In this document: piece by piece, positions 13,885 through 20,516 of the stretch
Layout: every line of letters starts with the position of its first letter
Position numbering within the stretch: position 1 is the stretch's first letter
Source of the DNA: Escherichia coli
GTDB taxonomy: Bacteria; Pseudomonadota; Gammaproteobacteria; Enterobacterales; Enterobacteriaceae
Direction: 5' to 3' (one strand)
Length of the DNA stretch: 64,000 bases
NCBI RefSeq assembly: GCF_044324875.1
Contig: NZ_CP172185.1
Position numbers and translations under genes: made by a program
The notes under the pieces: generated by a model
Seen by the model: the letters and a program-made list of their open reading frames with translations, nothing else
Told to the model about the DNA's origin: nothing
The model's database searches: none

Positions 13885-14035
13885 TCTGCGATTTATCATC
13901 GCAACCAAACGACTCGGGGTGCCCTTCTGCGTGAAGGCTGAGAAATACCCGTATCACCTGATCTGGATAATGCCAGCGTAGGGAAGTCACGGACCACCAG
14001 GTCATTGCTTCTTCACGTTATGGCAGGAGCAAACT
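13885..14035 (+). promoter_or_regulatory. TPP riboswitch (THI-box) in the thiM leader
   Basis: ggggtgcccttctgcgtgaaggctgagaaatacccgtatcacctgatctggataatgccagcgtagggaagtc (13916-13988) matches the thiM THI element; located directly upstream of thiM; 5' boundary approximate. Confidence 0.85.
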
Positions 14036-15676: not shown

Positions 15677-16504
15677 ATGAAACCAATGCAGCTAAGAATC
15701 ACCAGTCGAAAAAAACTCACCGCTTTATTATGCGCTCTTGGGCTAATTTCCATCGTTGCGATTCATCCGCGTCAGACGGTGAATTTTTTCTACTCGACAG
15801 CAATTCAGATTAAAGACTACATCCACTTCTACGGTTATCGTCCGGTCAAATCTTTTGCTATTCGCATTCCTGCCAGTTACACCATTCATGGTATTGATGT
15901 TTCACGCTGGCAGGAGCGAATCGACTGGCAGCGGGTGGCACAAATGCGCGATAACGGTATTCGCTTGCAGTTTGCTTTTATTAAGGCTACGGAAGGCGAA
16001 AAGCTGGTGGACCCCTATTTTTCGCGTAACTGGCAACTAAGCCGCGAAAATGGCCTGCTGCGCGGGGCGTATCATTATTTTTCCCCGTCGGTATCCGCTT
16101 CAGTTCAGGCGAGATTATTTCTGCAAACGGTGGATTTCTCACAAGGCGATTTCCCTGCCGTGCTGGACGTAGAAGAACGGGGAAAATTATCGGCAAAAGA
16201 ATTACGCAAGCGGGTAAGTCAGTGGCTAAAAATGGTCGAAAAACGCACGGCAAAAAAGCCGATTATTTACTCAGGAGCCGTTTTTTATCACACGAATCTG
16301 GCGGGCTATTTTAATGAATATCCGTGGTGGGTGGCTCACTATTATCAACGTCGTCCGGACAATGACGGCATGGCATGGCGCTTCTGGCAGCATTCCGACC
16401 GTGGACAGGTAGATGGCATTAATGGTCCGGTGGATTTTAATGTGTTTAATGGCTCGGTGGAGGAGTTGCAGGTATTCGTTGATGGGATTAAAGAAACCCC
16501 TTAA
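15677..16504 (+). CDS. yegX: Glycoside hydrolase family 25 (lysozyme-like) protein
   Basis: 275-aa ORF with N-terminal hydrophobic segment; exact start (15677 vs 15686) uncertain. Confidence 0.8.
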   Translation: MKPMQLRITSRKKLTALLCALGLISIVAIHPRQTVNFFYSTAIQIKDYIHFYGYRPVKSFAIRIPASYTIHGIDVSRWQERIDWQRVAQMRDNGIRLQFAFIKATEGEKLVDPYFSRNWQLSRENGLLRGAYHYFSPSVSASVQARLFLQTVDFSQGDFPAVLDVEERGKLSAKELRKRVSQWLKMVEKRTAKKPIIYSGAVFYHTNLAGYFNEYPWWVAHYYQRRPDNDGMAWRFWQHSDRGQVDGINGPVDFNVFNGSVEELQVFVDGIKETP

Positions 16505-16555
16505 ATAAGAAGCAGTGATATACTCCCACCAGACTCCTTGGCAGGAAAAAGACAA

Positions 16556-17302
16556 ATGGAACAAGCGCATACCCAGCTGATTGCCCAACTGAACGAACGT
16601 ATTTTAGCGGCGGATAACACGCCGCTTTATATTAAGTTTGCCGAAACGGTAAAAAATGCCGTGCGCAGCGGGGTGCTGGAGCATGGCAATATTTTGCCCG
16701 GTGAGCGTGATTTAAGTCAGTTAACCGGCGTTTCGCGCATTACGGTGCGCAAGGCGATGCAGGTGCTGGAAGAAGAGGGCGTGGTGACGCGTTCGCGTGG
16801 TTACGGTACGCAGATCAACAACATCTTCGAATACTCGTTGAAAGAAGCGCGAGGTTTTTCTCAGCAGGTGGTATTGCGCGGGAAAAAGCCCGATACACTA
16901 TGGGTTAACAAGCGTGTCGTGAAATGTCCCGAAGAAGTCGCGCAGCAGCTAGCGGTCGAAGCAGGAAGTAATGTCTTTTTGCTTAAGCGTATTCGCTATG
17001 TCGATGAAGAAGCGGTATCAATTGAGGAATCGTGGGTTCCTGCGCATTTAATTCATGATGTTGATGCCATCGGAATTTCTCTTTATGACTACTTCCGCAG
17101 CCAGCACATTTACCCACAACGTACGCGTTCCCGCGTTAGCGCCCGGATGCCGGATGCCGAGTTTCAGTCACATATTCAGTTAGATAGCAAAATACCGGTG
17201 CTGGTGATCAAGCAAGTGGCGCTTGACCAACAGCAACGGCCTATTGAGTACAGCATCAGCCACTGTCGCAGCGATCTATACGTTTTTGTGTGCGAGGAGT
17301 AG
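16556..17302 (+). CDS. yegW: GntR/HutC-family transcriptional regulator
   Basis: ORF 16538..17302; N-terminal GntR HTH (GERDLSQLTGVSRITVRKAMQVLEEEG) plus UTRA-like C-terminus; start taken at MEQAHTQL. Confidence 0.85.
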   Translation: MEQAHTQLIAQLNERILAADNTPLYIKFAETVKNAVRSGVLEHGNILPGERDLSQLTGVSRITVRKAMQVLEEEGVVTRSRGYGTQINNIFEYSLKEARGFSQQVVLRGKKPDTLWVNKRVVKCPEEVAQQLAVEAGSNVFLLKRIRYVDEEAVSIEESWVPAHLIHDVDAIGISLYDYFRSQHIYPQRTRSRVSARMPDAEFQSHIQLDSKIPVLVIKQVALDQQQRPIEYSISHCRSDLYVFVCEE

Positions 17303-18241
17303 TTCCTCGCGCGTTGGCGCACAATCACCGCCCCGATGCCCGACAACCCACGACGCCACTGCATTGCCCAGTAATACAGCATCCGCCAGTGGCAGACCAG
17401 AGGCCAGCCCGGCAAGTACGCCACCTGCATGACTGTCGCCCGCCCCAATGGTGTCTACAACTTGCGTTGGAAATGCCGGAATGCAGCCAGAAGCGTCGTT
17501 GCTGAAATACCATGCGCCCTCTTTATCGAGACGAATGATCAACGGCGCGGCAAATTTCTCCTGCCATTGCTTGCCAAGTGTTGTTATCTCTGCGGATAAA
17601 GCAAAACGTTCGGCGGCAATCTCAGCCTCTTGACGATTGAGTGATACTAAAGGTCGACAGGCCATGATCCGCGCCAGTAATGCGTCCGGGATATCGCCGA
17701 TACGTGGGCCAAAATCGATAAACGGCGTCACGTCTTGCAGCTCTTCCAGCCATTCCACTAACAATTCGCCGCAGAGCGAGGCCAGTTGATAACCGGAAAA
17801 ATAGAGCAGGCTGCCAGGCGCAACGGTTAATCGTGCCAACCATTGGCGATTCCATTGATTTTCCACGCCGCTGAATGACATAAAAGTGCGTTCGCCATCC
17901 GGCTCAACCAGCGCCAGACACCAGCCGTTATCACCTTCGGCGTTATCGATCAGGCTGATTAAGTCCTCTTTTGCCATCCGGTTGCGAATAATCTCCGCCC
18001 AAACCCCCTGACCGAGCGGCAAGGCATTACCCGCTTCGATGCCGAGGCGCTTTAACGCCACGGCAATATTCAGTGCGCAGCCGCCAACGTTAACGCTCTG
18101 CTGTTTCAGTTCGATATCGCACCCACGCCAGGGGAGAGCATAAGCGTCGGCGATCACATCAATGACCGCCGCGCCAATCACCATAACTGGCTGACGCGTG
18201 GTTAATTCAGGCAGCAGCGTGTGTAATCGAGCGCCGCTCAT
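17276..18241 (-). CDS. yegV: PfkB-family carbohydrate/nucleoside kinase
   Basis: 321-aa ORF; PfkB signature DTIGAGDSHAGG; 3' end overlaps yegW 3' end (convergent). Confidence 0.85.
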   Translation of the reverse strand: MSGARLHTLLPELTTRQPVMVIGAAVIDVIADAYALPWRGCDIELKQQSVNVGGCALNIAVALKRLGIEAGNALPLGQGVWAEIIRNRMAKEDLISLIDNAEGDNGWCLALVEPDGERTFMSFSGVENQWNRQWLARLTVAPGSLLYFSGYQLASLCGELLVEWLEELQDVTPFIDFGPRIGDIPDALLARIMACRPLVSLNRQEAEIAAERFALSAEITTLGKQWQEKFAAPLIIRLDKEGAWYFSNDASGCIPAFPTQVVDTIGAGDSHAGGVLAGLASGLPLADAVLLGNAVASWVVGHRGGDCAPTREELLLAHKNV

Positions 18242-19242
18242 ACCGCCTCCCGTTGTTGACGATATTTCGCCAGCGCTGTGGCATAGCGGTTGAAATCAAG
18301 CTGATTTACCGCATCCAGCTCCGCCTTTAACGCAGGATCGATAGCGTTAATGCCATGCAACGCGCCGCAGATTGCCGTCGCCATAGCACCGATGGTGTCT
18401 GTATCGCCGCCAAGGTTAGCGCACAGGACGGCGCAACGGTTCGGGTCGGTTTGTGCCAGTTCAACCAGCGCAATGGCGCACGGAACGGACTCAATAGTGC
18501 TGGTACCTGCGCCAACGACCTGGTAAAGCTGTTCGCTGGCGGATTCAGTGCCGTCGGCATTGCGCACAATTTTCAGCGCAATCTCCAGCCGCGCCGCCAG
18601 TGAGGCGCTGAACGTGGTCGTGCGTTTTTGCTGTGCATGTTGCGCAATTGAAGGCAGTGAATCAACAATCGCTGACCAGCTTTCTCCGTCAATGGCACGA
18701 GAAATCGCCCATGCGATGACTACCGCACCTGCAACTGCCAGATCGGATTTATGGGTCGGGCTCGACGCCAGCGCCACATCATCAATAAAGGAATCAACAT
18801 CACGCGCCGGAAGCAAACAACCTAATGGCGAGACGCGCATCGCTGCGCCGTTGGTCACGCCGTTGTTTTCCAGTTCAGCAACGGGTTTACCGTCGCGAAT
18901 GGCGTTGAGAGCAATCTTCGAGGTCGGACCTAGTACGTTTTTGTTAAAGGCATCGAAACGCAGCGCCCAGTCGAGAATATTACGCCCAATCAGATCCGGA
19001 TCGATCTTGCCTTTACGTTCCAGTAACGCATCCGCCAGACACAGCGCCATCGAGGTATCGTCGGTGAATTCGGCGCGGTTAAAATAACAGGCCGCGTTAT
19101 TCTCCTTTGGTCCAGGCAGAAAATGGTCAATCCAGCCAAAGTGTGCTTTAACGCGGCTGCGTGGCCAAAGCTCGGAGGGCATCCCCATCGCATCCCCTAA
19201 CGCCTGCCCATAAAGAGCACCGAGAATACGTTCTGTTTTCAT
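18238..19242 (-). CDS. yegU: ADP-ribosylglycohydrolase-family protein
   Basis: 334-aa ORF; 4-nt overlap with yegV start and yegT stop (operon yegTUV). Confidence 0.85.
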   Translation of the reverse strand: MKTERILGALYGQALGDAMGMPSELWPRSRVKAHFGWIDHFLPGPKENNAACYFNRAEFTDDTSMALCLADALLERKGKIDPDLIGRNILDWALRFDAFNKNVLGPTSKIALNAIRDGKPVAELENNGVTNGAAMRVSPLGCLLPARDVDSFIDDVALASSPTHKSDLAVAGAVVIAWAISRAIDGESWSAIVDSLPSIAQHAQQKRTTTFSASLAARLEIALKIVRNADGTESASEQLYQVVGAGTSTIESVPCAIALVELAQTDPNRCAVLCANLGGDTDTIGAMATAICGALHGINAIDPALKAELDAVNQLDFNRYATALAKYRQQREAV

Positions 19243-20516
19243 TTAACTTCCCCTTGTGTCAACGCAATATCGCGATCATCGACCTTGATAGCCGTAATTT
19301 CGTTGTCGGATTCGCGGAAAAAAATCATGAACAGCACGGCGATAATGGCAATCATCACCGCGCCAAAAGTCCACATCCCGGACCAGTTGAAAGTCAGTCC
19401 GTTTACCGGTTCCTGATAAGCGAACATCTTTTCCATCATCACACCGCCAAGACGATAGCCGAGCAAACTGCCGAAGCCCTGGCAGCAGAGTGTGATCAGC
19501 CCCTGCGCGGCGGTACGCATATGCACGGGGGCTTTTTTATCGACATAGATGTAAGCGGTAACGTAGTAAAAATCGTAACTTACGCCGTGCAGCAAAATGC
19601 CGAGGAACAGTAACGCGTAGGTGAAATATTCATCCGCACTACCGTAAATAAAGAAGCCATAGCGGATCGCAGCGGTGACCAGACCAAGTAATAATACCTT
19701 TTTGATACCAAAGCGTTTGGTGAAAAACGGCAATGCCAGCATAAAGAAGATTTCAGAGAACTGGCCGAGCGTCATCCAGCCAGTGGCGTTTTTCATACCG
19801 ACTTCGGTCAGATAACCGTTGGCAAAGATGTAATAGAACGCCAGTGGCATCGCAAACAGGAATGAACAGAAGAAAAAGACGAGGAAGTTTTTATCGCGCA
19901 GCAGGATCAGCGCATCCAGGCCGAGCATGACTTTAATGTCCATTTTGCCGGTGCTTTTTGGCGGCGTGTCGGGCAGGAAAAACGCAAACACACCGAGCAG
20001 AGCAGAACTTCAGGCGGTAATCAGCAGCGGGATGTTAGTCGGAGAGATATCGGCATAACCCAGCATTTGCGGCAAAAATCCACATGCAAGACCGGAGGCA
20101 ATCCAGCCGATAGTGCCCATCACACGAATGCGTGGGAAATCACGCTCCACATCCGGCACGTTGGCAAAAGCGATACTGTTAGTCAGCGCAATGGTCGGCA
20201 TATAGGTTAGCGAGTAGGCCAGCAGTAACGGGAAGAACCCGGCAAAAGTGGTCTGTTGCGCAGCGAAATACATCAACGCCGCACCAGCGAACATCAATAC
20301 CGCCAGCACTTTCTGCGCCGAGAAAAAGCGGTCAGTGATGGAGCCAACCAGAATTGGCGACAGGATCGCCGCAATGGCGGTACAGGCATACGACCAGCCA
20401 ATTTCTCCGGCACTAAAACCGCTTTTACTTAACCACAACCACAATGGCACAAACCACGCGCCCCAGATAAACCATTCAACAAACATCATGAACGACAGCT
20501 TTGCTGTTGTTTTCAT
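19239..20516 (-). pseudogene. yegT: Nucleoside:H+ symporter-family transporter yegT, interrupted by an in-frame TGA
   Basis: Two same-frame ORFs (20010..20516, 168 aa; 19239..19991, 250 aa) separated by TGA (plus-strand tca at 20010-20012); translation reads ...PLLITA*SSALLGVFAFFLPDTPPK... Confidence 0.75.

Follow-up and report, generated by a model that had tools for sequence, protein, structure and literature searches.

A conserved 27-bp overlap between the repressor gene yegW (ggaR) and yegV, with a candidate yegTUV terminator inside the repressor gene

Why should a repressor gene share its last 27 bp with the last gene of the operon which it controls, and does this arrangement have a regulatory role? 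The question is raised by a stretch of 64,000 nucleotides of Escherichia coli (contig NZ_CP172185.1), which we will call the window. In this stretch rcnA, rcnR, thiM, thiD, yegX and yegW follow each other on the + strand; they are met by yegV, yegU and yegT, which lie on the - strand. An Rfam scan finds a TPP riboswitch upstream of thiM. The operon has an interrupted yegT in the window (Table 1), unlike the loci L001 and L072, in which yegT is uninterrupted.

A good part of the answer is already published. YegW, now called GgaR, represses yegTUV as its single target, and ADP-glucose releases the repression (PMC10819704). In ChIP-chip it was bound only at the fbaB/yegT spacer. The yegTUV mRNA increases about 30-fold in a ggaR deletion and about 3-fold when glucose is raised from 0.25% to 1% (PMC10819704). 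The control of yegTUV by yegW, which the original prediction held to be plausible, is thus an established fact. The transcripts are also known to overlap: yegV-yegW is found among the 165 convergent excludons of MG1655, with overlapping transcripts in half or more (at least 50%) of the 58 RNA-seq samples (PMC12288877), which amounts to a published answer to the RNA-seq check proposed at the outset. That full-length transcripts overlap had been claimed from the sequence, from which it indeed follows. The overlap is therefore on record in the RefSeq annotation and in the excludon map. What we add is modest: a conserved hairpin embedded in the repressor gene, the reason why the overlap has its minimum length and some natural variants in which it has been resolved.

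Both genes are genuine. YegW has an N-terminal GntR winged helix (PF00392, residues 29–87, E 9.6e-16) and a C-terminal UTRA effector domain (PF07702, residues 108–242, E 1.7e-36), the combination which defines the GntR/HutC subfamily. YegV matches PfkB in residues 19–309. These Pfam matches agree with the identities given at the outset, a GntR-family regulator and a PfkB kinase. The domain models stop at or before both tails: UTRA ends at residue 242 of 248 in YegW, PfkB at residue 309 of 321 in YegV. Further support comes from orthologues in about 70 species and from a variation among codon positions which is of the coding type in both genes. RefSeq has the identical 27-bp overlap in E. coli 9FA and SC418, and together with the stops of both ORFs it confirms the extent first described. 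Since the RefSeq protein YegW has 248 aa, the gene starts with the ATG at 16556; the TTG at 16538 in the mechanical list of ORFs has been corrected. It had been asked whether the choice of start changes the overlap, a moot point because the overlap is found at the 3' ends. With shared 3' coding nucleotides, two genuine genes and conserved stops, yegW and yegV form a convergent overlapping coding pair.

Table 1. Features of the yegW/yegV junction and its surroundings, in positions of the window
Feature	Position	Strand	Evidence and remarks
Tail-to-tail overlap of coding sequences, 27 bp	17276..17302		Phase 123:321; YegW 241–248 LYVFVCEE-stop, YegV 314–321 LLLAHKNV-stop
yegW = ggaR, 248 aa, 747 nt, repressor of yegTUV	16556..17302	+	ORF, RefSeq, Pfam, PMC10819704
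yegV, 321 aa, PfkB-family sugar kinase, last gene of yegTUV	17276..18241	-	ORF, RefSeq, Pfam
yegW stop TAG, opposite the YegV Leu314 codon CTA	17300..17302	+	Sequence; only TAG/TAA in loci which keep the overlap
yegV stop TAG, opposite the yegW Leu241 codon CTA	17276..17278	-	Sequence; CTA/TTA in 61/61 overlap loci
Hairpin of 19 bp, imperfect, candidate stem of an intrinsic terminator or 3' stabiliser	17194..17240	-	Folding, covariation, recoding
U-rich tract AUUUUGCUAUCU, directly 3' of the hairpin	17182..17193	-	Sequence and folding
C-rich, G-poor RNA after the yegW stop, candidate Rho loading region	17303..17382	+	C 41%, G 20% over 80 nt
yegU, ADP-ribosylglycohydrolase family, middle gene of the operon	18238..19242	-	ORF, RefSeq, Pfam
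yegT, nucleoside permease, first gene of the operon	19239..20516	-	TGA at 20010–20012 interrupts the copy of the window
Sequence ending at a Term-seq 3' end, antisense to yegU	19132..19171	+	PMC7815308 supplementary file 1, mapped to the window

Within the overlap the codons of yegW and yegV are in exact antiparallel register. The + strand reads CTA TAC GTT TTT GTG TGC GAG GAG TAG (LYVFVCEE and stop), the - strand CTA CTC CTC GCA CAC AAA AAC GTA TAG (LLLAHKNV and stop). In this register a yegV stop (TAA, TAG or TGA) may face only a Leu codon (TTA or CTA) or a Ser codon (TCA) of yegW. If we move inward from the YegW stop we meet E, E, C, V, F, V, Y and L, so that Leu241 is the first permissible site. 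As far as codon rules go, 27 bp is the shortest overlap which the conserved YegW tail permits, because no Leu or Ser codon is found closer to the stop. The codon of Leu241 is CTA or TTA in all the loci with the overlap (61 of 61), whereas YTA is used at only 12.4% of the other Leu codons of yegW. L008, in which a duplication has resolved the overlap, uses CTG instead. Judged by this codon usage, selection keeps Leu241 as CTA or TTA and preserves the yegV stop. If the present stops were lost, the next ones in frame would add 32 aa to YegV and 24 aa to YegW.

The junction is widespread. Among 5426 complete E. coli genomes the yegW/yegV region is found in 5423, and in 5120 of these the 135 bp which include the junction and the hairpin described below are at least 99% identical. 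The window as a whole shows 99.3% identity with isolate SC418 and about 97.4% with most E. coli; a K-12-like genome has a hairpin identical to that of the window. With YegV as a query against one genome per species we obtained 70 loci, which belong to Escherichia, Citrobacter, Enterobacter, Lelliottia, Pectobacterium, Mangrovibacter, Trabulsiella, Leminorella and other genera. Both genes are present in 68 of these species-representative loci. Of the 68, 64 have an overlap of precisely 27 bp, with YegV identities down to 63%, and both stops are at the same places, which also answers the question about true stop positions that came with the original prediction. In the loci which keep the overlap both stops are always TAG or TAA, the reverse complements of the Leu codons CTA and TTA; for this reason TGA does not occur.

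There are four exceptions. In L008 (C. amalonaticus S646) about 85 bp from the 3' end of yegW have been duplicated in tandem; the genes are now separated by a gap of 56 bp, and the decayed duplicate copy codes for the YegV tail. In C. sedlakii (L020) there is a spacer of 69 bp with two hairpins and the YegV tail has been replaced. The draft assembly of Yokenella (L032) shows a deletion of 1 nt within the overlap, with both genes frameshifted; it is either an assembly error or decay. In L066 the junction is intact and the frameshift lies upstream in yegV. The resolved Citrobacter lineages demonstrate that the overlap is strongly conserved yet not indispensable: judging by their genomes, these two lineages can dispense with it.

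The two proteins do not contribute equally to this conservation. The YegW tail LYVFVCEE is nearly invariant across the loci, whereas the YegV tail varies (HKNV, HKDV, HENV, DEHV). Column entropy inside the overlap is 0.52 at position 3 of the yegW codons and 0.11 at position 1, which corresponds to position 3 of yegV; at the third positions just outside the overlap, which belong to yegV only, it is 1.44. This distribution, with entropy concentrated at yegW position 3 and yegW position 1 nearly frozen, shows that the yegW frame dominates evolution inside the overlap, where the end of YegV is a passenger and drifts.

Since there is no intergenic DNA, the signals for both 3' ends must sit inside the partner gene. 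Synonymous variability in yegW dips at codons 211–220. On the opposite strand this region corresponds to a long hairpin, 36–82 nt beyond the yegV stop and antisense to yegW codons about 213–229; with its U-tract the element extends over 36–94 nt. On the - strand, from 17240 to 17194, it reads GCCG-U-UGCUG-U-UGGUCAAGCG[CCACU]UGCUUGAUCA-C-CAGCA-C-CGGU, followed by AUUUUGCUAUCU. Its folding energy is -27.9 kcal/mol (z -4.3), a value matched by none of 200 shuffled sequences. In an alignment of 65 loci 95.9% of the cells are paired, as compared with 19–60% when the partners are slid. Three pairs have changed on both sides, many others switch between G·U and G-C or A-U, and every one of the 63 distinct hairpin sequences has G·U at pair 56/62.

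Is this structure only a consequence of the YegW peptide? When the peptide is kept and its codons are exchanged for synonymous ones, the native hairpin proves more stable than the recoded sequences in 59 of the 65 loci at the 5% level (median z -3.9), a count which does not represent independent events, given that the loci are phylogenetically related. The median energies are -27.9 kcal/mol for the native hairpin and about -14 for the recodings. When the two genes were scanned without bias, each on both strands, the hairpin was the strongest outlier of 1074 segments, with z -6.3. We assign the element to the yegTUV transcript because of the G·U pairs and because the RNA of the - strand folds more stably than that of the + strand, again in 59 of the 65 related loci.

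The U-tract varies among the genera. It is good in Enterobacter and Lelliottia (AUUUUUUC), moderate and short, with 4 U, in Escherichia (AUUUUGCU), weaker in Citrobacter (ACUUUGCU) and absent in Trabulsiella. The hairpin itself has decayed in Trabulsiella, in Leminorella and in three other loci; the 27-bp overlap is kept there, and the two features are therefore separable. A simple scan for promoters and terminators gave nothing meaningful near the junction and missed this long bulged hairpin, while the Rfam scan, run over 12–23 kb of the window, gave the thiM TPP riboswitch alone and no match at the junction. In the Term-seq tables (Adams 2021, PMC7815308, and the TERMITe supplements) there is no 3' end for yegV or yegW; for yegV this is expected, because yegTUV is repressed in the wild type. 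A 3.3-kb northern band (PMC10819704) was considered as a sign of the native yegTUV 3' end and discarded: it comes from the deletion strain only and its resolution is too coarse. The element is a stable stem-loop containing G+C, just past the last stop of the operon and on the transcribed strand, as is usual in terminators. Most likely the hairpin with its U-tract is the intrinsic terminator of yegTUV, a protective stem-loop at its 3' end, or both; on the strength of folding and comparison it remains a candidate for these roles. As no other terminator-like element of yegTUV was seen, and this one sits within yegW, the termination-based interplay which the original prediction allowed for receives indirect support. 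If it is the terminator, the yegTUV mRNA is probably complementary to at least the last 115 nt or so of the ggaR mRNA. The 27 bp of the coding overlap thus probably understate the overlap of the transcripts, which would reach at least about 115 nt.

The other transcript probably ends in a different way. Neither a terminator scan nor a search for hairpins with T-tracts found a hairpin followed by a U-tract downstream of the yegW stop. On the yegV side we looked for an embedded element and found normal synonymous variability up to the overlap; the recoding scan of yegV gave no antisense outlier. For these two reasons we have rejected a conserved ggaR terminator inside yegV. The RNA which follows the yegW stop is rich in C and poor in G (Table 1), and ggaR probably does not have a hairpin terminator of its own: its transcript would enter yegV in antisense and be stopped there by Rho. 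In the Term-seq data of Adams 2021 (PMC7815308) the locus shows no Rho region and a single end, antisense to yegU. It lies on the yegW-sense strand at position 2180176 of MG1655 and was detected in M63 glucose only; in the window it falls 1869 nt beyond the yegW stop. This end may come from transcripts of ggaR or of thiMD-yegX-ggaR which have read through, or from an antisense RNA unrelated to them.

How does this junction compare with other systems? In convergent overlapping pairs, as in yegW/yegV, genes on opposite strands share 3' coding DNA (Lillo & Krakauer 2007, PMC2174442; Huvet & Stumpf 2014, PMC4161906). E. coli has 58 (PMC2174442) or 75 (PMC4161906) such overlaps of coding sequences, and phase 123:321 accounts for 33% of the convergent overlaps of at least 5 nt (PMC2174442; PMC4161906). 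As a class they arise by movement of stop codons, and their termination signals are forced into the neighbouring coding sequence, which is also the case here. Terminators have been found in 23 of the 116 E. coli genes which take part in convergent overlaps, necessarily within the coding sequence of the neighbour (Lillo & Krakauer, PMC2174442). Our pair is an ordinary member of this class. It differs from the others by its length, 27 bp as compared with a modal value of 4 bp, by the conservation of this exact length across a bacterial order and by the fact that the length is a provable minimum. The yegTUV hairpin has in common with intrinsic terminators inside convergent neighbours a stem base rich in G+C, a position shortly past the last stop and, in most genera, a U-rich tract. 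Its stem is unusually long, with 19 bp and two 1x1 internal loops. As a candidate terminator it would be unidirectional, since the ggaR-sense side has no U-tract, and in Escherichia the U-tract is short. GgaR resembles other single-target HutC/GntR repressors (PMC10819704) in its GntR HTH and UTRA domains, in a gene which adjoins its only target and in its low number of about 20–30 molecules per cell. The usual arrangement of such a repressor is divergent from the promoter of its target, whereas ggaR is convergent with the last gene of the target and overlaps it.

We are fairly confident in the following explanation. The junction is dual-coding and without spacer; it would be kept by purifying selection on the YegW tail and on the yegV stop, with an operon terminator selected inside the repressor gene. 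The tail-to-tail overlap of ggaR and yegV is ancient and fixed, and would be an effect of dual-coding constraint and gene packing and not a dedicated regulatory device. The yegTUV transcript would end at the selected hairpin and U-tract inside yegW, the ggaR transcript would run antisense into yegV until Rho stops it, and the reciprocal antisense overlap would be an unavoidable by-product of the junction. That the overlap is an annotation artefact, with one tail untranslated, or an unselected accident of this strain, is hardly credible. The tails do lie outside the Pfam models or at their very end, and the YegV tail is poorly conserved; however the two stops keep their positions in 64 of 68 loci from many genera, a rare YTA codon is held at Leu241 in every one of the 61 loci, the YegW tail is invariant and the next stops in frame are 32 and 24 aa away. 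The hairpin might also have a function other than termination, such as an RNase III or processing site, a structure needed in the mRNA of ggaR itself, or a palindrome in the DNA to which a protein binds. Palindromes are the binding sites of HutC-type regulators. The U-tract is imperfect, and the sense-strand RNA also folds, with -21.4 kcal/mol. We consider these functions very unlikely, given that the - strand RNA is the more stable one in most loci, that most genera have a U-rich tail right after the stem and that the element starts 36 nt beyond the last stop of the operon. The frequent and tolerated G·U pairs correspond to C·A mismatches on the other strand and to mismatches in a DNA palindrome. 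Such strand-specific pairs, and the fact that the fbaB/yegT spacer is the sole ChIP-chip target of GgaR (PMC10819704), lead us to reject the reading of the hairpin as a DNA palindrome or a GgaR operator.

There is also the view that yegTUV and ggaR form a functional excludon, a switch with positive feedback. ADP-glucose would inactivate GgaR and the strong transcription of yegTUV would extend over the last 115 nt or so of ggaR; collision of RNA polymerases, cleavage of the duplex by RNase III, or both, would then lower ggaR and lock the operon on. In the opposite direction, transcripts of ggaR or of thiMD-yegX-ggaR which read through would give an antisense RNA over yegV and yegU which dampens the operon. 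The pair indeed resembles the excludons of ExcludonFinder (PMC12288877) in its convergent, overlapping transcripts, and there is a functional link, since one partner encodes the repressor of the operon to which the other belongs. Its listing in at least half of the 58 RNA-seq samples (PMC12288877), the arrangement without spacer in 64 of 68 loci and the ggaR-sense 3' end antisense to yegU all agree with this view, which would likewise predict strict conservation of the whole arrangement. So does the candidate terminator embedded in the partner, a feature which the authors of the excludon map deem stronger functional evidence than an overlap due to leaky termination (PMC12288877). However this conservation is already accounted for by the dual-coding constraint, and two Citrobacter lineages have separated the genes by 56–69 bp. 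For this pair we found no evidence that the overlap causes cross-regulation, mutually exclusive expression or transcriptional interference, and the level of GgaR is reported to be constant: it stays at about 20–30 molecules per cell across media and growth phases while yegTUV varies about 3-fold (PMC10819704), which is a weak counter-argument. The expression of ggaR is very low, so that as an antisense RNA it should do little to a derepressed operon, and in the literature we did not find data on dsRNA or RNase III specific to this pair. We judge a functional excludon to be unlikely. A fully developed version, in which selection has built a feedback device, is still more doubtful. In it, transcription of the derepressed yegTUV would shut down ggaR: polymerases would collide, RNase III would cut a duplex of at least 115 bp, and the response to ADP-glucose would show hysteresis or bistability. 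In the absence of thiamine, read-through of thiMD-yegX-ggaR would also produce a long antisense RNA across yegV and yegU. The Term-seq 3' end antisense to yegU is consistent with such a read-through, which, if true, would couple thiamine status to a glycogen-related operon. Any regulatory effect of the antisense overlap is probably small under the conditions studied so far.

As a discovery the junction has little weight, since the overlap, the link of the regulator with its target and the excludon listing are all published. It does have practical consequences. Any edit in the last 115 nt or so of ggaR also hits the yegV stop codon or the 3' hairpin of yegTUV. This hazard is real: in a MAGE experiment the edit of the yegV stop from TAG to TAA was overwritten by the overlapping yegW oligo (PMC3458525). 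The phenotype of ggaR has been studied with the Keio ΔggaR strain JW2088 (PMC10819704). If a ΔggaR strain lacks the shared end, a changed YegV protein or a changed yegTUV mRNA could be responsible for part of its phenotype. The Keio ΔggaR deletion is probably of this kind, with both the yegV stop codon and the hairpin removed. The locus also illustrates clearly what sets the exact length of an overlap and how selection may place a terminator inside a coding sequence, and the two resolved Citrobacter variants may be used as its natural controls.

The junction of yegV and yegW (ggaR, the repressor gene of the yegTUV operon) is strongly conserved in Escherichia coli. Of 5423 E. coli genomes, 5120 have at least 99% identity over a segment of 135 bp that contains the junction and the hairpin embedded in yegW (window 17176–17310), whereas only five reach this value over the surrounding 2 kb (window 16400–18400); the difference is due in part to the fact that one mismatch in 135 bp still leaves 99.3% identity and that yegW is itself highly conserved. 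The next-strongest outliers in RNA structure are found one in each gene, with z of about −3.9 to −4.4 against synonymous recoding. One E. coli strain, LB858871 (NZ_CM142823.1), has probably a disrupted yegV: the match is broken in this gene near window position 17747 and resumes elsewhere in the record, and the gene's annotation reads just "PfkB family carbohydrate kinase".

Features of the yegTUV–yegW region in window coordinates
Feature	Position	Strand	Remarks
TPP riboswitch	13905–14001	+	Rfam RF00059 (71 bits); precedes thiM
RNA-structure outlier	16604–16699	+	yegW sense, near its 5' end; vs synonymous recoding
RNA-structure outlier	18128–18199	−	yegV sense, near its 5' end; vs synonymous recoding
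Sequence up to Term-seq 3' end	19132–19171	+	antisense to yegU
yegT	19239–20516	−	first gene of the operon
Nonsense codon	20010–20012	−	yegT codon 169, GGA to TGA

Three loci from our comparison of one genome per species have a modified junction. In Citrobacter amalonaticus S646 (L008:3900–4137) about 85 bp from the 3' end of yegW have been tandemly duplicated, which resolved the overlap: an extended YegV tail is now encoded by the decayed copy, and the Leu241 codon of the functional yegW, opposite which yegV stops in the window, has become CTG. Citrobacter sedlakii (L020:3873–4123) has a 69-bp spacer with two hairpins between the genes, and this spacer may be an acquired terminator; its YegV has a replaced tail, ending in REQLLVSLKR. 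The draft genome of Yokenella regensburgei ATCC 49455 (L032:3921–3985) shows a deletion of one nucleotide within the overlap (GCACAC to GCAAC), so that both genes are frameshifted; this is either a sequencing error or a joint pseudogenisation.

The operon of the window has its own peculiarity, a nonsense codon in yegT, a gene that is uninterrupted both in SC418, the closest relative, and in 9FA. The yegT of the window appears to be a pseudogene specific to this strain, and the stop may be polar on yegU and yegV. On the opposite strand, Term-seq detected a 3' end at MG1655 position 2180176, given only in the M63 glucose sheet (PMC7815308). It is found in the yegW sense, 1869 nt beyond the yegW stop, and that listing has no further 3' end on this strand from the thiM riboswitch to it. 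It could correspond to thiMD-yegX-ggaR read-through in thiamine-free medium or to an independent antisense RNA. The riboswitch stands at the head of the same-strand gene string thiM-thiD-yegX-yegW.

The Keio design reportedly retains only the last six codons and the stop of the deleted gene. Such a deletion of ggaR would remove the yegV stop, the last yegV codon and the embedded hairpin, all within window 17182–17302. The ΔggaR mutant of PMC10819704 is a Keio strain, JW2088. If its deletion follows this design, the strain would have an altered YegV C-terminus and an altered yegTUV 3' end.
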